Shown here one piece after another: positions 10,060 through 59,243 of a DNA stretch of 64,000 bases. Position numbers and translations under genes: made by a program. Below the pieces are notes generated by a model, which had not been told where the DNA came from, made no database searches, and worked only from the letters and a program-made list of their open reading frames with translations. How positions within the stretch are numbered: position 1 is the stretch's first letter; the number at the start of each line of letters is the position of its first letter. Source of the DNA: a virus; UHGV virus genome UHGV-0134778. One strand, 5' to 3'.

Positions 10060-10866
10060 TTAGATAAAACGCTTGAACATAGAAGGTGATGAGATTGATG
10101 GAATCACACAAGGCAGCGCTACCTCCTCTTTCTCCAGGAAATTAATCGCAGAAGCTACACAGTCGGCCCAGTCGTCTTTTCTGTTAAATGTTGATCTTTC
10201 CCCGTTGAACTTTTCAAGTTCAGTCAGAAATGCTTCCAGAGTGTCAGGATGGAAACTGGATTTTACAATCCTCACCATTCCTTGTTGGGCAAGATTGGCA
10301 AAAGGTGAGAACCTTGTCAGTTTAGATTTGTTGGAAGGCATTGGATCTTCTTCAACCCTGAACCCTTCGGCGAGCAAGGATCTGGACGAGGTTAAGAATT
10401 CACTCTTACCTGCCTGACCGGGGTCCACAGAAAATACGATTATGCAATCATCTCCATCAAACTGCGCCTGTTTCCTGATGATCACATCTCGTTCCCCAGC
10501 CTTTTTACAGAACTTGCCTTCCAGACCTGTGGAATACCTACCGTCATCCACGTTCTCAGGACAATAATCCCCGGACAGGTAATAAAAGCCGTCGCTATCT
10601 TTACTTACCTTAACACTGGCGGTAAAGTCAGGAAATTTATTACCGGAAGTTCTCTCGGTTCCTGCCTTATCCCATGCCCTGCAAGATACTGATCCAAGAG
10701 GTACTCTATCGGCATCCCGAAGGAAAGATCTTTGGAAATAGTTTGCACCTTCAGGTTTGGCAAACCAGTTGCCATGAAGAAGCTGGGCTTTTTCAAGCTC
10801 TGGCAGACCTTCAAGGAAAGCAAGGTATTCTGGGTTGTCTCTCAAGCAGACAGGATTATCGAATCC
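10060..10866 (-). CDS. terL: terminase large subunit, C-terminal nuclease part (exon 2 or separately translated fragment)
   Basis: Open frame continues upstream of the ORF-track TTG start to a stop at about 10867; no convincing RBS of its own; acidic residues spaced as in terminase RNase-H-like nuclease domains. Confidence 0.6.
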   Translation of the reverse strand, partial: GFDNPVCLRDNPEYLAFLEGLPELEKAQLLHGNWFAKPEGANYFQRSFLRDADRVPLGSVSCRAWDKAGTERTSGNKFPDFTASVKVSKDSDGFYYLSGDYCPENVDDGRYSTGLEGKFCKKAGERDVIIRKQAQFDGDDCIIVFSVDPGQAGKSEFLTSSRSLLAEGFRVEEDPMPSNKSKLTRFSPFANLAQQGMVRIVKSSFHPDTLEAFLTELEKFNGERSTFNRKDDWADCVASAINFLEKEEVALPCVIPSISSPSMFKRFI

Positions 10867-11837
10867 TTATATTCAAGGGTGGTCGCAACACCACCCTCCG
10901 CACCATTACGTGCTGCTGCATGTTACCATGCAGAGTAGACTATATCACCACCCATCTCAGGGGTGCTTCGCTTTTCGAGCGCCATAAGCTTGCGCCCTAC
11001 TCCCTCTCGGGATAGTCGTTGAACTACATTACCAATCATAATTGTTTGAAATATAGGTGTAAGTCTTACGGTCTTTTATTCCTTTAACAACACTAAAACT
11101 TACTCCCCACTTCTTAGCTATTTTATTTACACACAAAGCCCTACCACTAAGATCCTCGCAGATACCTATTATCTTGTGCTCACTTATCCTATTAGAGGTT
11201 GGCACTTTTCTAAAGTTAAATTCTTTAGAAATATCTGGGTATACTGAGCCATTCTTTATACCACTTACAAGTGGTTGATTGACACCAAACATTTCACAAA
11301 TGTCTTTTACCCTTGCACCTTGCTCTAACAGCCTACATATTTCAAGAGCAGTGGCATCATCTAGGGACCTGTATTTATTGACATAGTCCTTTTTAAGTCC
11401 CATTTCATGAGCGTGATGTGTGTTTTCCTCAGGCGTTGTCCACTCAAGGTTCCATGCGGCGTTATTCAACTTATTGCCATCCAGGTGGTTTACTTGAGTT
11501 TTCACACTGGGGTTATCATTATCTACAAAAGTCATAGCAATAACTCTGTGGACTAGCACTTGGAACTTTTTCCCGCCCTCGCACAAAGTGACCATAGCAT
11601 AGCCAGTCTTTTTCTGCACATTAGGATGGAGGAATTTATTAGAATACAGGCTGTAAATTCTGCCATCGTATGTAGCACAATAATGATTGTAACCTAAAAA
11701 GCCTAAATTTTTCATTTCAAACATCTCCCTACTACAGGTTCGGAAGGGTAATTATAGCTGCTGATTGTCCGTTTAGCAATCGGATTTTCCAGCAATTAAC
11801 GAAGTTATTCGACGTGCATTTCTGCACGAAGCCACTA
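10867..11837 (-). mobile_element. putative group I intron carrying an HNH homing endonuclease gene, inserted in the large terminase gene
   Basis: About 970 nt separate the ATPase and nuclease halves of terL; GC-rich hairpin-forming sequence flanks a free-standing HNH ORF; exact splice sites not determined. Confidence 0.5.
11029..11724 (-). CDS. HNH homing endonuclease
   Basis: 231 aa with HNH_3-like motif (QVNHLDGNKLNNAAWNLEWTTPEEN) and a C-terminal DNA-binding-like region; embedded between the terL halves. Confidence 0.7.
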   Translation of the reverse strand: MFEMKNLGFLGYNHYCATYDGRIYSLYSNKFLHPNVQKKTGYAMVTLCEGGKKFQVLVHRVIAMTFVDNDNPSVKTQVNHLDGNKLNNAAWNLEWTTPEENTHHAHEMGLKKDYVNKYRSLDDATALEICRLLEQGARVKDICEMFGVNQPLVSGIKNGSVYPDISKEFNFRKVPTSNRISEHKIIGICEDLSGRALCVNKIAKKWGVSFSVVKGIKDRKTYTYISNNYDW

Positions 11838-12587
11838 TCATTTAATGGTTGCGCCTATGAACGAGAATGACAACGGTCTTGGCTTGATCTCTACGCCAAG
11901 TCCGTTAACCGTGGTGTATTTCTCTATCAACTCTTCTTTAGAGTCTCCCCAGATAAATTCGCCGTCGCGTCGGATAAAATACCTTTTCTTACCGCATTTC
12001 TCCGGATCTGGATACCCTTCATCGTCCAACCACCATCTAACCAGTTTGGCAAGCATGTGTTCTGAGTCTGGGTTACAGCTGATAACCATTCTTGATGGAT
12101 ACTTTGACTGAGATCGCAGACGAGACATCAAATAGTCTATCTGCTCCCATTCGAATTGCGTGCCTTCATCGAAGCAAACCATGGTGTACTCAAGGCCTTG
12201 ATGGTTAAGCTTATCTTGGACATACTCCATGTGGCAGTATTTTACAACGGCCCCTTTTTTGCTCCTGTCCCACTTGCCAGTGCTCGGATCAAACCGTGGA
12301 AAAATAAACTTATGATCCTTCTCTCTGAACTTTGGTTTAATGTTTTCAGGCAGATCACTGTAAATAGCTACTGCTTTAGGCCATAGACCACCCTCACCTT
12401 CCAACTGTGGAGTTGTTCTTCGGAACATAACCACAGAGCTGTGCGGGTCATCAATAATTTTAAGCGGCATTAGCTGCAAGAGGAACGACTTGCCAGACCC
12501 AGCTGCACCTCCGATCACCAAAATATCTGCATCGTTCTCTAGGATCATCTTCTGCTTTTCAGAACACGGTCCGTAAATCTTAGACAT
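11838..12587 (-). CDS. terL: terminase large subunit, N-terminal ATPase part (exon 1)
   Basis: Walker A GGAAGSGKS and Walker B-like MVCFDEGTQ; frame ends in a stop inside the inserted element. Confidence 0.75.
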   Translation of the reverse strand: MSKIYGPCSEKQKMILENDADILVIGGAAGSGKSFLLQLMPLKIIDDPHSSVVMFRRTTPQLEGEGGLWPKAVAIYSDLPENIKPKFREKDHKFIFPRFDPSTGKWDRSKKGAVVKYCHMEYVQDKLNHQGLEYTMVCFDEGTQFEWEQIDYLMSRLRSQSKYPSRMVISCNPDSEHMLAKLVRWWLDDEGYPDPEKCGKKRYFIRRDGEFIWGDSKEELIEKYTTVNGLGVEIKPRPLSFSFIGATIK

Positions 12588-13935: not shown

Positions 13936-14034
13936 GGTGCTAGGTGATGGAATCGAACCACCTATGTATTCAACGACTACCTCGTCTATTTTCAGGATTA
14001 AAAATCCTCGCCCTTGCCAAAGGGCTTACCTAGC
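13936..14034 (-). tRNA. atypical tRNA-like element (99 nt): possible non-canonical tRNA or tRNA pseudogene
   Basis: Perfect 7-bp acceptor stem (GCTAGGT/ACCTAGC), canonical D arm and T arm (GGTGG-TTCGATT-CCATC), but A8-A9 instead of U8, an AGGATT-TTT-AATCCT hairpin in place of a standard anticodon arm, and a ~31-nt insert containing a second hairpin; no CCA encoded. Confidence 0.35.
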
Positions 14035-38469: not shown

Positions 38470-39270
38470 GTCAACGGTTAACAAACTGGCCGTTGTAAAA
38501 CTCTCCTAACCTCATAAGAGGGGTCGGTAAATCCGGCTAACGGGGAACGCTAAGGCGAAAGCTATGCCAATCCCGTGACTAGTTCTTACAGGAGTTGGAA
38601 CGGTTGTAACGACTAACGAAAGGCAGAGATGCTTGACAAACATTTCTGAACCGAGTAGTGTAGGGGTTAGTTGAAATACTAACTTCGAAATGGAGAGACT
38701 CTATGAAAAAGATCATTCTTAATGGTGAAGAATCGAACTACGTGATTGATGAGGTTGGAAACGTATACGGAAAACGTGGAATGCTGCACCCCATATTGTG
38801 GGGAGGTTATGGAAAAGGTAACAAGCATGTCAAACGCCGCTATATGTATTCTTTCAACCACAAAGGTAAGAAGATTCGAATCCAAACTTCAAGGGTTGTT
38901 GCCTTGTATTGTTTGCCAGATGTCCCAGAAGACCCTGAAAACTGGGAAGTGAATCATAAAGATGGCAATACATTGAATGATCATCCGTCTAACCTGGAGT
39001 GGGTTTTGCCGGAAGATAATAAGAGACATGCTTTCCGAACAGGGCTTTGTCCAGGCAAGTGCTACAGGAAAGTGCAGGCATACCGAGGGAAAACCTTGGT
39101 GGGTGAATATCCTTCACTCTATGCCTGTGCAAAAGCCTTAAATTTGAACGTAGGGAACGTCCATAGGGCTATCGAAGGAAATGCCGAAGGTAAGCATCTC
39201 ACAATAAAGGGTTATTATCTTATTGAAGTAGAGTAAGAGATAGTCTGGCCCTGTGGAAACACAGGGGTGG
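38470..39270 (+). mobile_element. putative group I intron in nrdD carrying an HNH homing endonuclease ORF
   Basis: ~800 nt separate two collinear NrdD halves; 5' portion is GC-rich with hairpins, then an HNH ORF, then a short structured 3' segment ending in G before the exon-2 frame; boundaries approximate. Confidence 0.6.
38703..39236 (+). CDS. HNH homing endonuclease
   Basis: HNH_3-like motif WEVNHKDGNTLNDHPSNLEWVLPEDN; own GGAG RBS. Confidence 0.7.
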   Translation: MKKIILNGEESNYVIDEVGNVYGKRGMLHPILWGGYGKGNKHVKRRYMYSFNHKGKKIRIQTSRVVALYCLPDVPEDPENWEVNHKDGNTLNDHPSNLEWVLPEDNKRHAFRTGLCPGKCYRKVQAYRGKTLVGEYPSLYACAKALNLNVGNVHRAIEGNAEGKHLTIKGYYLIEVE

Positions 39271-54374: not shown

Positions 54375-54680
54375 ATGGCTAAATCTAAAGTTGAACTGTT
54401 CACCTCTCTGCCTTCTGACACTGCAGAGCGTGATCGCCTCCGTAAAACAATTGAAGAGCTGGTGGAACTTCAGCTTCAGATTAAAGATCTGAAAGACGCT
54501 ATCAAGGATATTATTCTTGTAGAGAAACAGGATCACCTGTATTCTCCTAAGTTTATCAAGTCATTGGTGGCTACCGAATTCGATATCCGCTATGAAGCTG
54601 AAAAACGTCGAGCTAAAATCGAAGAAGAGGTTGAGCACATGTCTGAAGCAGACATTCTGTTCAAACGCTCTGCAGAATAA
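54375..54680 (+). CDS. hypothetical protein, coiled-coil-like
   Basis: 101 aa with AAGGAGA RBS; followed by a strong terminator. Confidence 0.5.
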   Translation: MAKSKVELFTSLPSDTAERDRLRKTIEELVELQLQIKDLKDAIKDIILVEKQDHLYSPKFIKSLVATEFDIRYEAEKRRAKIEEEVEHMSEADILFKRSAE

Positions 54681-55394: not shown

Positions 55395-55420
55395 GGACGC
55401 TATGTGGCGTCCTTTTCTTT
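55395..55420 (+). terminator. rho-independent terminator
   Basis: GGACGC-tatgtg-GCGTCC followed by TTTTCTTT. Confidence 0.7.
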
Positions 55421-55582
55421 ATCTGGTGCACGATTCCATACCTTAAGCAGTTAATCTCATTACAGAGCGTTTAAAGGCGGCTTACAAGCAACTCTCTATT
55501 TCGAGCGTAGCGAGAACGCACGTCCGTTTTGACCCAAATCACCATACGCTCGGATTTTAACCAAACCCTCGCGGCGTTTCTG

Positions 55583-55611
55583 TTGACACATTACCGCTCC
55601 AGTGATAATAT
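55583..55611 (+). promoter_or_regulatory. sigma70-like promoter
   Basis: TTGACA-N17-TAATAT; lies inside the N-terminal part of ORF-track ORF 55529-55942, arguing that part is not coding. Confidence 0.5.
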
Positions 55612-55643
55612 CCACACATCATTTGGAGAATATGGGATACACA

Positions 55644-55733
55644 ATGAAAACATTGTCAGAGGTTTTGGTGGTGATCCTGATGATCATTACGTCCATAGTG
55701 GCTGTTGCCGGAATACTCACGGGTGGAACATGA
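55644..55733 (+). CDS. small hydrophobic peptide (29 aa), not in the ORF track
   Basis: MKTLSEVLVVILMIITSIVAVAGILTGGT; GGAG RBS downstream of the promoter; stop overlaps the next ATG. Confidence 0.35.
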   Translation: MKTLSEVLVVILMIITSIVAVAGILTGGT

Positions 55734-55942
55734 TAAACACACATGCATCTGAAGAGACATCCAAAGGAGTGACTATATGTCCCTTGGCTGAGCCAGTGAA
55801 AGAGGAAAACTTAGATTCTGAAGATTCTCCATCTTCGCTCCAGGTAGATCCTGAGGCTGATGACCTAACGTGGGAAGACATCGTAGACATCTGGTTCTCC
55901 ATTATGCCTGAGCACGAAGAGTTCAGAGGTGGCAGACTATGA
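55730..55942 (+). CDS. hypothetical acidic protein
   Basis: C-terminal 70 aa of ORF-track ORF 55529-55942, starting at an internal ATG coupled to the upstream peptide; alternative is the full 137-aa ORF. Confidence 0.35.
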   Translation: MINTHASEETSKGVTICPLAEPVKEENLDSEDSPSSLQVDPEADDLTWEDIVDIWFSIMPEHEEFRGGRL

Positions 55943-56063
55943 AGCACCGAGCCCACACAGGTTCCTCATGCTAAAGCATGGCCTGAAGAGGCAAACGTGC
56001 ATAATTCCTGTGCATTGGAACGTATAAAACCCTGTTCACACTCTCATTTCTAGAGGAGATTTC

Positions 56064-56279
56064 ATGAAGATAGAAATATTTGGTGGAGCTGACAACACTT
56101 GTGGCCTGATTTACCTCGAATTCGATGAATCGTACCTGCCAGAAGTGTTAAACATGGATTCTGTTGCTGAGGCTTTGGGAGTAAGTCCTAAAGATCTCTA
56201 CTCTGGTGCTGAGATTGATGGTTGGGAGGAGACCATGAACATCGATTTCAGTGAAGTAGGTGATGAACCGCTGGACTGA
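56064..56279 (+). CDS. hypothetical acidic protein (MKIEIF N-terminus)
   Basis: 71-aa ORF with GGAG RBS; last plus-strand gene before the non-coding region. Confidence 0.45.
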   Translation: MKIEIFGGADNTCGLIYLEFDESYLPEVLNMDSVAEALGVSPKDLYSGAEIDGWEETMNIDFSEVGDEPLD

Positions 56280-57804
56280 CACACAATTAGTTGCCCGGCT
56301 AAAGTGCTGGAAGCACCCATAACATCTTCCAACTAAATTTCCTACCAACACAGTTACTTACCCACCACACATGACTGTTTGCTTGTTTAGTGAGCAGTCA
56401 TCCCTTGACATTCTTGCCTATCTTGATAAAATTAAGTTCTTCTCTTTTCTTTTACCGAGTAATTCGGGTTTTCTGTTCTCTTCGGTTTGAAGGGGTATGG
56501 AGATACACCTGAGTGAACAGGGTGAACAACCGAACCTTTAGCTATGGCATTAGCATGGCGAAGCGGACGGGTGACGAAAGAGGGGCCGGAGGACACCAGT
56601 CACTGCCATATAGTATATGGGTGATAACCTGAAGAGTCTGAATAAGTGTTTAAGTACCAGTCAGAGGAAAAGGTGAATGGTAGCCGAAGGGGGAGGGGGG
56701 TTTCTTATATCTTTAATTTGTATACTTTATATACACTTGTAAACCAATTCAATTAGGATCTGTTTACCACACAAAGTGGATGGAGACAAATATCACCTAT
56801 TAAACTTGAATTATTTATAGAAAATACCACAACACTACTTAAGTCTTTGATTTTACACACAAATCCTACAGATACTCACCCTCCATATTTAACATACTTG
56901 TAACATATCCCATACTCTACCTGTCTGATCAATTTACCCAACTACATCCCCATATTTTTCCTGTCTGTACTACCCCTGCCCCGCCGGGAGTCCCGTCATA
57001 TCTGGCTTCCCAGCAAATATCACACCCACAAATATCATTGCCTGAAGAGGGTTTCATCCCATAATACACACCTTGCCTGAAGAGCGATTCATACACCAAC
57101 TAAATTTTTTAATTGACCCCTCCCCGCCGCCGGAGAGGTTGGCTTTTCCCACACAGGCCTGAAGAGTCAGCCAGAAATATCTGAACAGGCCCAGTTATAC
57201 CACGATTTTGACATGACCGACAGGAGTGCTACCCTGTCAGGAGCCGGTAGCGACTGGAGTGCTGCCAGGCGGACGAAATGGGAATACTTCTCATTCTTAT
57301 AACAATTCTCAAATATCGAGGCAGTGAGGCAAATTAATAGGTGAGGCCGTTCACACAGTGGCACAACATTTGCAACCTATCTTGTGGGGTGAATGAGAAT
57401 ACCTATCATTGTGAGAATAGTTATCATTACGGGCAATTTAACATAATACCCATTATGCGCACCACTGGCGATACATACAGGGATTGATAACATGGGTTAC
57501 TGTTTACGCACATAACAATTATATTTCTTACTATTTGTGCGGGATATAGTTAGCAACCAATAGATTAGATATTGACCTGCGGACTTCTGACCGTCCAGAC
57601 GTCTAAACGCCCACACAACAAGGGTTATACATACATTCCTGAATGTAAACAGGGCCGCAAAAATGCTACCATACCAGTTTGTAAATTTTTCATGCAGCAC
57701 TTGACAAAGAGGAGAAAAACTTGTCTGACACTTTTGCCACTTTTGACACTTTTACCTTTGACACAATATGACACAATAACGGCTGTTACTATTCCATATC
57801 TCAC

Positions 57805-57858
57805 TGTTTACGCATAGACTGTTTACGCCTGAATAGTTTACGCCCAAACTGTTTACAC
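57805..57858. repeat. four direct repeats of TGTTTACGC-like 9-mers with 15-bp period
   Basis: Copies at 57805, 57820, 57835 and 57850 (TGTTTACGC, TGTTTACGC, AGTTTACGC, TGTTTACAC). Confidence 0.8.
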
Positions 57859-57869
57859 AGAGATGATGA

Positions 57870-58163
57870 GCCATGCCATTCGTTTGCATGAAAACAATTA
57901 ACAAGATAACAATTAACAAGTTAATAATCTTTCGCTGGCTATGCCAGGTGACTAGGTCACCCCTTCGGGCGTTTATATGACATAATATAAAAGCAGGGCA
58001 ACTATTAGAAGATCTATAGTTGCCTTGCTTGTTATGTCATGATTAACTAAATACAAGGCAACTATGATCTGAGTAATAGATTGCAGAAAAACTATCACGG
58101 GGGTGATGGTTACTGCTTTTATATTATGTCGCGACTCCGTCGCGCCATGCCATTCGTTTGCAT
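57870..58163. repeat. composite repeat locus: 20-bp direct repeats flanking inverted repeats and a 28-bp palindrome
   Basis: GCCATGCCATTCGTTTGCAT at 57870-57889 and 58144-58163; inverted 18-mer TGACATAATATAAAAGCAG at ~57978-57996 vs ~58113-58130; palindrome GGCAACTAT-N10-ATAGTTGCC at ~57997-58024. Confidence 0.75.
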
Positions 58164-58823
58164 AGTTGCCTTATTGTTACAGGTAAAATAATTACATTAT
58201 TAATTATTTCTTATCTTTCTCTTAGTCATCTAATGATTCCAGTCAGTATAGTAATGTACAGTAAACATTAGACGACTAAAGATTTCTCTGTTTATGATAA
58301 CTCATCGTGATAATTTCGGGCTGTTTACGAAAAATGTTGACACCTGAGCTGATTTATGTTATGCAGTCTACACGAATAATTATTTTATGCAGGTATTGAC
58401 TATTCCGTTATTCTGTGGTTGGAATAAATACTTTGCAGGCTATAGAATGGCGTGCGTACGTGAATTCTGAGATCTGGCGGCTATAGTTATACTCGATTTT
58501 TCGCGTAGAACACGCTTTAGATGCTGTGTAAGTGTATGACTTATAAAGATTTTTAGTTGTTGACAAGATATTGGAGATGTGCATCAGGTTAAAATTTGTG
58601 CAATAGCGGCATTACGTGCACTTTTGGGAGAGAAAACGGGTAAAAATGGACTTGCTACCACACAATGAAAAATTATGCAATAGTTATTTTCCATGTATAT
58701 TTGTACAGTATGTGGGATTGATGGCTAGTCAATTATTCCACTTGCCAGGTAGGGCCGTTTATGGTAGGAGAAGAGCAGACAAAAAGAAAGGGGCCTAAGC
58801 CCCTTGATAATTCAGTTAAAAAA

Positions 58824-59243
58824 TTATAATGATTCGTATATTTCAAAAATCCGATTTGCCAGGTCGTTACGGTAGCTGAATTTTTCCTCACGTTTGATCA
58901 TAAGATCTTTATAGCCGTACTCTTTAAGCACTTCATTAACTTTATGGCGGCATACTTTCATATTATCCTGCGCGTCACCAATAAATCTGTTGCTATGGTG
59001 CATGGCTTTAATTTCTTCTTCCAGGACCAGGGCAACTATGCGGACCGGATCAAGCTGATAGGCGGTAACATCCATGCGGCATTGTAAACGGCTTTTTACG
59101 TCTGCCACCGGATATACTGCAACCTCTTCCCCGTCAACATTGACAATAATTAGTTTACCATCGATTTCGAATCCTTTCGCCGCCGGACCGTGACAAAAAG
59201 CGTTATCAAAGCTATATGCCGGATTATTAGATTTAATGTTCAT
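58824..59243 (-). CDS. hypothetical protein
   Basis: 139-aa ORF with AGAGGT RBS and promoter-like element upstream. Confidence 0.5.
   Translation of the reverse strand: MNIKSNNPAYSFDNAFCHGPAAKGFEIDGKLIIVNVDGEEVAVYPVADVKSRLQCRMDVTAYQLDPVRIVALVLEEEIKAMHHSNRFIGDAQDNMKVCRHKVNEVLKEYGYKDLMIKREEKFSYRNDLANRIFEIYESL

Follow-up and report, generated by a model that had tools for sequence, protein, structure and literature searches.

The gene-poor stretch and the genome termini

The window analysed here is a 64,000-nucleotide stretch of the virus genome UHGV-0134778, which belongs to a Vequintavirus (rV5-like) phage of Escherichia coli and is matched by 122 phage records at about 90-95% identity. Towards its right end, a short word, RCCTGAAGAG (where R is G or A), is clustered inside a 2.5-kb stretch without credible genes, the plus-strand gene block ending at 56279 and the minus-strand block starting at 58824. 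In the rV5 genome paper this stretch appears merely as a grey "non-coding" box (PMC3606486). Many related records start or stop within it, and in the relatives Gotham, EdH4 and HdK5 the first 459 bp of the genome are exactly repeated as the last 459 bp, a sequence that maps to window positions 57268-57725 at 96-97% identity. Terminal repeats of 458/459 bp have been published by two groups (PMC6563267, PMC7471380). The direct terminal repeat (DTR) is present once in the window, as a collapsed, concatemer-like junction, and by homology the virion DNA would run rightwards from 57268 (the left end), with the right end at 57725.

The rV5-like concatemer junction is accompanied by conserved, locus-specific, oriented short sites, which lie beside a previously undescribed orphan promoter (predicted) and a conserved block. 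In kind, the sites are best filed as cis-acting repeats at phage genome ends. Their positions relative to the DTR are as follows.

55981..55990, plus strand: motif copy 1, GCCTGAAGAG, exact; within a 32-amino-acid open reading frame (ORF; 55929-56027), frame Gly-Leu-Lys-Arg; no variable core columns in 17 genomes
56627..56636, plus strand: motif copy 2, ACCTGAAGAG, one mismatch; inside the invariant block; GCCTGAAGAG in phage EdH4
57040..57049, plus strand: motif copy 3, GCCTGAAGAG; 228 bp before the DTR; core invariant, 8 of 20 downstream columns variable
57075..57084, plus strand: motif copy 4, (G/A)CCTGAAGAG, which is GCCTGAAGAG in the window; 35 bp after copy 3 and 193 bp before the DTR
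57157..57166, plus strand: motif copy 5, (G/A)CCTGAAGAG, which is GCCTGAAGAG in the window; CCCACACAG directly before it; 111 bp before the DTR
57268..57725, no strand: DTR, from prefix/suffix mapping of three relatives and repeat_region annotation; boundaries by homology

As would be expected of packaging-signal sites adjoining a genome end, copies 3-5 lie 111-228 bp upstream of the DTR, with copies 1 and 2 farther out in the 640-1290 bp range (1287 and 641 bp, respectively). The spacings between successive copies in the window are 646, 413, 35 and 82 bp.

Frequency and distribution of the word

The five same-direction copies described in the first-pass annotation of this DNA were all found, as RCCTGAAGAG on the plus strand at 55981, 56627, 57040, 57075 and 57157; four of its coordinates were right, and the fifth (56628) was one nucleotide too high. 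Its judgement that such a density exceeds chance was borne out by shuffles, by a Poisson test and by Markov-1 simulations of the gap. Matches with at most one mismatch number 13 in the whole window, against 3.6 +/- 1.8 expected, a count reached in none of 100 shuffles. Five copies of the 9-mer core CCTGAAGAG are found in the 3.3-kb gap, where 0.11 would be expected (Poisson p = 1e-7), and a 9-mer of any kind with at least five copies arose in 2 of 2000 simulations. The remaining plus-strand copies in the window (31542, 32409 and 39841) are in-frame Pro-Glu-Glu codons of long genes, and it is because of such codons that a shorter word, CTGAAGAG, is found 11 times on the plus strand and never on the minus strand.

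A count across a whole genome, which the first-pass annotation had named as a check, was obtained from the complete relative Gotham (137,025 bp). RCCTGAAGAG occurs there six times on the plus strand and not at all on the minus strand, and five of the six copies fall at 135281-136457, in the homologous 1.2 kb; the Markov-2 expectation is 0.74 copies of the 9-mer per strand for the entire genome. The motif is therefore not equally frequent everywhere, the outcome that would have spoken against the annotation, and its concentration in one place on one strand is what would be expected of a packaging-signal site unique to one locus. Restriction to one locus in 137 kb also argues against a general promoter word or a compositional one.

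Beyond these phages, the word and the gap were sought at related loci. In Seunavirus, Mydovirus, Certrevirus and TH18, which were reached through the neighbouring phrog_639 gene, synteny does not extend to the gap and the loci lack the word, and the locus of the Phapecoctavirus Schickermooser shows no nucleotide similarity. A collection scan with GCCTGAAGAGNGNTTCAT returned single hits per locus and one further relative of the region, the IMG/VR contig L012; scans with CCTGAAGAGN{20,50}CCTGAAGAG were uninformative, since the hits, judging by their lengths of 45, 54 and 63 nt, were mostly in-frame Pro-Glu-Glu repeats. As judged from these comparisons, the word and the gap are confined to the genus Vequintavirus.

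A second short word is also enriched in the region. CACACA occurs 11 times on the plus strand of the gap (55600-58670), against 1.3 expected, and CCACACA or CACACA often stands just upstream of the motif copies, as in CCCACACAGGCCTGAAGAG at 57148. In Gotham, CCACACA occurs 32 and 23 times per strand, about two to three times the Markov-2 expectation of about 11 and 10; being over-frequent on both strands, it is less locus-specific than the main word. Chi sites were considered as well and set aside: GCTGGTGG is found four times in Gotham, and none of these sites is near the ends.

Conservation of the sites

Motif cores, flanks and spacing were compared across 17 genomes. All five copies are present in 15 of them, and the other two (FV3 and contig L012) lack only the copy at 57075. 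Within the cores, 2 of 45 columns are variable, against 26% in the surrounding non-coding DNA (permutation p = 0.025); when the invariant block and its copy are left out, the figures are 2 of 36 and 34% (p = 0.008). The relatives are close (5-12% divergent), so that these tests are of modest power. At four of the five sites the first base is either G or A, the purine changing repeatedly between genomes, and the next nine bases are fixed. Copies 3 and 4 are always 35 bp apart, and copies 4 and 5 between 81 and 104 bp; downstream of copies 1, 3 and 4, 6-8 of 20 columns vary.

The longer core shared by two copies, TTGCCTGAAGAG(G/C)G(T/A)TTCAT, had also been reported correctly: positions 57038-57057 and 57073-92 agree at 18 of 20 positions (repeat family D9). 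The extension is less conserved than the core itself, since the second copy reads TTACCTGAAGAGCGCTTCAT in most relatives. A sensitive self-comparison of the locus detected no similarity between copies beyond 15-20 nt. With the core kept and nothing in common beyond that length, the copies appear to be short sites that are kept individually, rather than remnants of a duplicated module, and the suggestion of duplicated regulatory modules in the first-pass annotation finds no support. Its other suggestion, repeated binding sites, is compatible with a locus-specific core of 9-10 nt whose flanks are far less well conserved, although such a pattern falls short of proof. Conservation of so short a core amid freely varying flanks suggests that the word itself is recognised, whether by a DNA-binding or an RNA-binding protein.

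Four of the five copies (copies 2-5) are clearly non-coding. Copy 1 lies in the 32-amino-acid ORF at 55929-56027, in which the frame and the peptide are largely kept in relatives, changes being synonymous or conservative, and its conservation may therefore reflect coding.

It is rather doubtful that the copies lack any function, as leftovers of old local duplications or chance recurrences that look conserved through close kinship. That explanation is helped by the limits that 5-12% divergence places on the footprint test (p = 0.008-0.025), by the loss of one copy without apparent harm in two genomes, by the possible coding constraint on another, and by the fact that the word is a common Pro-Glu-Glu coding string that recurs widely in unrelated sequences. 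Neutral duplicates, however, should decay in their cores along with their flanks, yet here one 9-mer is identical among the copies and all similarity ends within about 20 nt; the core stays invariant amid non-coding columns of which 26-34% vary, and five such 9-mers on the same strand within 1.2 kb are very unlikely to arise by chance.

The orphan promoter and the invariant block

Between the last plus-strand gene and the DTR, four further features surround the non-coding copies.

56380..56704, plus strand: near-invariant non-coding block of 325 bp; promoter plus about 265 nt of G-rich sequence; ends in G5AG6 and holds copy 2
56405..56432, plus strand: orphan sigma-70-type promoter, TTGACA-16 nt-TAAAAT with TGn (extended -10); predicted
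56705..56804, no strand: AT-rich stretch (73% AT) directly after the G run; in the top 0.4% of 100-nt windows in the 64 kb
56820..57120, plus strand: tract rich in C (about 31%) and poor in G (about 10%), a composition common to all 17 genomes

The predicted promoter at 56405 matches the consensus at 11 of 12 positions and has the additional TG, is directed at the genome terminus, and has no gene downstream. Both hexamers are invariant, with variation only in the spacer and just upstream. It is absent from the rV5 promoter table, which passes from P162 to P164 and was built only from sequence upstream of genes. Transcription would be expected to start from this promoter, and a terminator-like hairpin lies 15 nt past the predicted start. 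Downstream of it stand the four copies of the word that are clearly non-coding, each in sense orientation. The first-pass annotation is upheld in part; the most important context, namely the adjacency of the DTR and the promoter upstream, was not visible to it.

The block that contains the promoter has about 4% variable columns, against 26-34% around it. Of 119 records, 118 match it at 95-100% identity, whereas the neighboring 349 bp of largely coding DNA reach 80-95% in 117 of 118. Its plus strand is 35% G and 16% C (GC skew +0.37, rank 22 of 2551 windows). The G5AG6 run at 56689-56700 differs in length by 1-2 nt between relatives, which excludes coding through the run, and two small hairpins within the block vary only in their loops. 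The AT-rich stretch that follows is 70-75% AT in 16 of 17 genomes. The C-rich tract contains copies 3 and 4, with copy 5 just beyond it.

Several other identities for parts of the region were considered and rejected. The block found no match among 5,426 E. coli genomes, which disposes of a host origin. A 21-amino-acid ORF over the G run is broken by the 1-2 nt indels there, and the "MPEE..." frames, which begin with TTG, have no start codon in most relatives. The hammerhead-like CUGAAGAG (CUGANGA core) gave no Rfam ribozyme hit and lacks the required helices. The interval 56601-56616 resembles part of an E. coli type I-F CRISPR repeat by eye; the hairpin half is missing, and the relatives differ. 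A connection with FtsK and KOPS was raised by a "DNA translocase FtsK" annotation and by GGGGAGGG in the G run, and the 87-amino-acid protein so annotated has no FtsK-gamma hit in Pfam. The G5AG6 run also contains a match to the FtsK-orienting word GGGNAGGG, a link unsupported by tests, as is the likeness of this run to the mitochondrial CSB II G-run, where a transcript switches to DNA priming. In Pr121LW (locus L282), the region homologous to 56705-56790, in the AT-rich stretch, is replaced by an unrelated 78 nt containing GATAACCTGAACCTG, which repeats the left context of motif copy 2 (GATAACCTGAAGAG).

The strength of the promoter, its invariance and its lack of a downstream gene raise the question of whether the word acts in RNA. 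The promoter would then drive a non-coding transcript, comprising the G-rich 265 nt and possibly extending into the C-rich tract, in which CCUGAAGAG would serve as a linear RNA element, for instance to bind a protein or direct processing, and the strand bias would be that of transcription. This is a somewhat unlikely account, though one that several features would suit: the four non-coding copies are downstream and sense, the first 265 nt are more conserved than the neighboring gene and are non-coding by the indels in the G run, and the two hairpins vary only in their loops. The C-rich, G-poor tract at 56820-57120 resembles a Rho-loading region. Against an RNA element, a search of Rfam with 55400-59000, at the gathering score and at E <= 5, gave no hit save three chance-level matches, and the folding energy of the block does not differ from that of shuffled sequence (z = -1.2 on the plus strand, -0.15 on the minus strand), nor does that of 56980-57270 (z = -0.95). 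At 95-100% identity, the block offers too little variation for covariation. In YP-6 and FV3 the hairpin that could surround copy 5 is not preserved, and the transcript itself is predicted, with the terminator-like hairpin standing 15 nt after its start.

The order of the elements, with a promoter, a G-rich block ending in G5AG6 and then 100 nt of 73% AT that is kept in 16 of 17 genomes, is also that of a replication-origin module modelled on T7 phiOR, the T4 origins or ColE1. The transcript would be prone to R-loop formation, the AT-rich stretch would unwind, and the copies would serve as sites for an initiator or helicase loader. T7 offers a precedent, in that each of its origins contains a promoter and phiOR is a secondary origin (PMC8373140). 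An origin of this kind is nonetheless unlikely here: the spacings of the copies (413, 35 and 81-104 bp) are not helically phased like those of iterons, copies 3-5 are at least 230 bp from the AT-rich stretch, and the turning points of the GC skew follow the direction of transcription and do not mark an origin (PMC3606486). No initiator gene was recognised nearby; a search of the flanking proteins for one returned only a generic match to the phrog_639 'transcriptional regulator' and a sub-threshold GapR-like hit.

Regulation in the narrower sense of promoter function, one possible meaning of 'regulatory' in the first-pass annotation, agrees poorly with the sites. The word would overlap a -35 element (TTGCCT...) or form an activator box for weak promoters, and TTGCCT-16 nt-CATAAT at 57038-57065 does score 9 of 12. 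At copies 1 and 3 the word is followed by CATAAT at a distance of 9-10 nt, and copy 1, which is upstream of a 71-amino-acid gene, has a perfect TATAAT in some relatives. A suitably placed -10-like hexamer is nevertheless present at only two or three copies, in flanks that vary between genomes (6-8 of 20 columns at copies 1, 3 and 4); copies 2, 4 and 5 have no consistent -10, no gene follows copies 2-5, and elsewhere in 137 kb the word is not found upstream of genes. The fixed -10 and downstream gene of a sigma-70 promoter or activator box are thus lacking, and such a role is very improbable.

A possible signal at the genome end

The interpretation preferred here, tentatively and as a possibility rather than a probability, is that the copies are protein-binding sites for the processing or packaging of the concatemer junction. 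RCCTGAAGAG would be a short, strand-oriented, cis-acting recognition word that marks the right-end side of the Vequintavirus junction, present as four non-coding copies and one copy in a small ORF within the 1.3 kb of unique DNA that leads up to the 459-bp DTR. To the observed sites, their orientation, restriction to one locus, conservation and distance from the DTR, this interpretation adds a sequence-specific protein that would bind the copies and work on genome ends. The likeliest binder would be the packaging machinery, with terminase either recognising the junction or processing it, so that packaging begins or, once the motor is close to the end, the terminal cut is signalled. The arrangement would be comparable to the one-way CCTAAAG arrays around the T7 DTR, a parallel in layout that is described below. 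In favour of this interpretation are the position of copies 3-5, the specificity of the word for the locus, the selection seen on a short unit, the likeness to the T7 junction, and the functional link in T7 between terminase and transcription into the junction.

A number of observations weigh against a packaging signal. A search near the locus for a small terminase subunit or another sequence-specific DNA binder identified none, the only terminase gene being the split gene for the large subunit. Copies 1 and 2, at 640-1290 bp from the DTR, are far away for a cut-site signal, and copy 4 is dispensable in 2 of 17 genomes. Schickermooser, a Phapecoctavirus with a 329-bp DTR, shares the adjacent 139-amino-acid gene and has neither the word nor a clear equivalent. 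Unlike T7, the rV5-like junction has no copies inside or beyond the DTR, and there is no RNA polymerase gene (as stated for CB7); the T7 repeats themselves are not known to have an established function, so the parallel is one of layout. Finally, because the non-coding copies are all sense and downstream of the promoter, a role at the RNA level explains the strand bias equally well.

Neighboring repeats and genes

The DTR is bordered on both sides by repeats of other kinds.

57205..57267, plus strand: indel-prone zone with one to three CGAC(A/T)GGAGTGCT(A/G)CC (GGAGTGCTRCC) units; repeat family D16
57726..57859, plus strand: short direct repeats past the DTR, as 9-bp ACTTTTGAC units from 57726 and 15-bp ACTGTTTACGC units at 57803-57859; families D1-D3

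The CGAC(A/T)GGAGTGCT(A/G)CC unit that abuts the start of the DTR is always present. On the other side, three or four 9-bp ACTTTTGAC-like units begin at the first base after the DTR and are followed by four 15-bp ACTGTTTACGC units; CTGTTTAC occurs six times in the gap, against 0.05 expected (p = 4e-11). The zone at 57713-58124 is hypervariable between relatives. Two long imperfect palindromes are found in the left-end non-coding DNA, at 57981-58041 (61 bp) and 58222-58279 (58 bp), and Murica annotates a minus-strand terminator about where the first of these lies.

Upstream of the gap, at 54375-54680 on the plus strand, a 101-amino-acid protein is assigned to phrog_639 ('transcriptional regulator') and gives a sub-threshold GapR-like DNA-binding hit. 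It is at least 99% identical in 115 records, an unusually strong conservation for a small early-type protein, and homologues with 42-60% identity are found in other Vequintavirinae genera and in Aeromonas phages.

The gene for the large terminase subunit (10060-12587, minus strand) is split, an HNH endonuclease ORF (11029-11724) separating its N-terminal part (11838-12587) from its C-terminal part (10060-10845). Two group I intron matches below threshold lie beside this ORF or overlap it, at 10916-11161 (E = 1e-5, 31.7 bits against a gathering score of 50) and at 11493-11854 (E = 9e-4); the terminase gene probably contains a group I intron with a homing endonuclease. In the tRNA cluster, a 99-nt tRNA-like gene (13936-14034, minus strand) reaches an Rfam tRNA score of only 35.5 bits. 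ARAGORN gives it a four-base 'anticodon' (atcc) with no amino-acid assignment, and the Gotham homologue is annotated as tRNA-Lys-TTT.

The records that match this E. coli phage group include 19 GenBank entries named 'Campylobacter phage' (host usually C. jejuni), at about 91-94% identity. Either their host assignment is doubtful, or they represent E. coli phages carried along in the samples.

Implications

Phages of the rV5-like group are widely used in E. coli biocontrol and therapy, and more than 120 of their genomes have been deposited. The 2.5-kb "non-coding" box had never been dissected before; the genome termini can now be placed inside it, together with three undescribed conserved elements, namely the predicted orphan promoter, a 325-bp block more conserved than the neighboring gene, and the RCCTGAAGAG sites with their single orientation. 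Should these sites act as signals in packaging or at the junction, they would define the minimal cis element for transducing plasmids or phage engineering, and would offer a second, independent system for asking what the similar T7 junction repeats do. An RNA encoded by the block would instead be a new, conserved non-coding RNA of phages.

Comparison with known systems

Among phages with a short DTR, T7 has been studied best, and its junction is the closest in layout. T7 has a 160-bp DTR, with the phiOR promoter at 39229, 549 bp upstream of the right DTR copy and directed at the end, and 13 copies of CCTAAAG around and inside the DTR, none of them reversed. A short DTR (160 bp in T7, 459 bp here), a promoter a few hundred bp before the right DTR copy and facing the terminus (phiOR at 39229; predicted here at 56405), and a short word in one orientation only beside the DTR are found in both phages, and the combination of a short DTR with one-way repeats is that of a T7-type junction. 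The words themselves are also alike, (A/T)CCTAAAG in T7 and (G/A)CCTGAAGAG here, CCTAAAG and CCTGAAG differing by one transition; the T7 copy nearest its DTR, CCTAAAGAGGGT, agrees with CCTGAAGAGGGT at 57041 at 11 of 12 positions. By a rough estimate, a similarity of this degree would arise by chance a few times in a thousand, which is suggestive and not decisive.

The differences are equally clear. In T7 the copies flank the DTR on either side and also occur within it, at spacings of 13-30 bp, whereas those in the window are on the upstream side only, with none within the DTR and with loose and variable spacing, the other side having different repeats. Transcription from phiOR is by the T7 RNA polymerase, and phiOR is separated from the repeats by gene 19.5; the predicted promoter in the window is of the host sigma-70 type, with nothing coding after it. 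The two phages are also from unrelated groups, a podovirus and an rV5-like myovirus. The T7 arrays are reportedly the SRL/SRR arrays of Dunn and Studier from 1983. The CCTAAAG repeats are not known to have an established function, and a search of the available literature on them found nothing relevant; the parallel is therefore one of layout, and not a proven mechanism.

At the T7 junction, pausing of RNA polymerase engages terminase, and packaging of plasmids needs an origin, a pac site and a terminal repeat (PMC3276506, PMC13236587). In T7, no origin lacks a promoter, which is an essential component, and phiOR also serves, close to the right end, as a secondary origin, plausibly acting via an R-loop (PMC8373140). 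No phage RNA polymerase is encoded by the relative Certrevirus CB7 (PMC7344957), and only host-type promoters have been reported for rV5 (PMC3606486). With a sigma-70-type promoter and no reported phage RNA polymerase, the locus does not have the pausing single-subunit phage enzyme that recruits terminase in T7-type junctions, and it is at most an analogue of that family rather than a member. A bolder proposal, which must be regarded as distinctly unlikely, is that the promoter, the G-rich block and the one-way sites form a single module for transcription-coupled end-processing or for the initiation of replication, built by a myovirus that uses host RNA polymerase and equivalent to T7 phiOR plus the junction repeats. 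The likeness of CCTGAAG to CCTAAAG would then reflect a shared reader, either a host factor or a convergent terminase specificity.

Iterons, such as those of the lambda origin and P1 oriR, share with the sites the direct repetition of a short word in non-coding DNA. They are regularly phased and stand beside an unwinding element, whereas the copies here are irregular (646, 413, 35 and 82 bp, the last being 81-104 bp among genomes), with spacing that varies between genomes, and copies 3-5 are at least 230 bp from the AT-rich stretch; the helically phased spacing next to an AT-rich element that defines iterons is thus absent. With transcription-primed origins (T7 phiOR and phi1.1A/B, T4 ori(uvsY) and ColE1 RNA II), the locus has in common a promoter (predicted here), a G-rich stretch and an AT-rich segment.

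In lambda, the R-sites of cosB are bound by the small terminase subunit, and cosQ is an orientation-dependent termination signal. Lambda has cohesive ends, a known binding protein and sites within about 200 bp of the cut; the window, in contrast, has a terminal repeat and copies spread over 1.3 kb, and there is no sequence similarity between the two. In their predicted role, the window copies would nonetheless be like the lambda cos sites in being short, sequence-specific sites beside the terminase cut that are cis-acting and orientation-dependent, and they resemble cosQ in particular in lying at the end of a genome unit, upstream of the cut.

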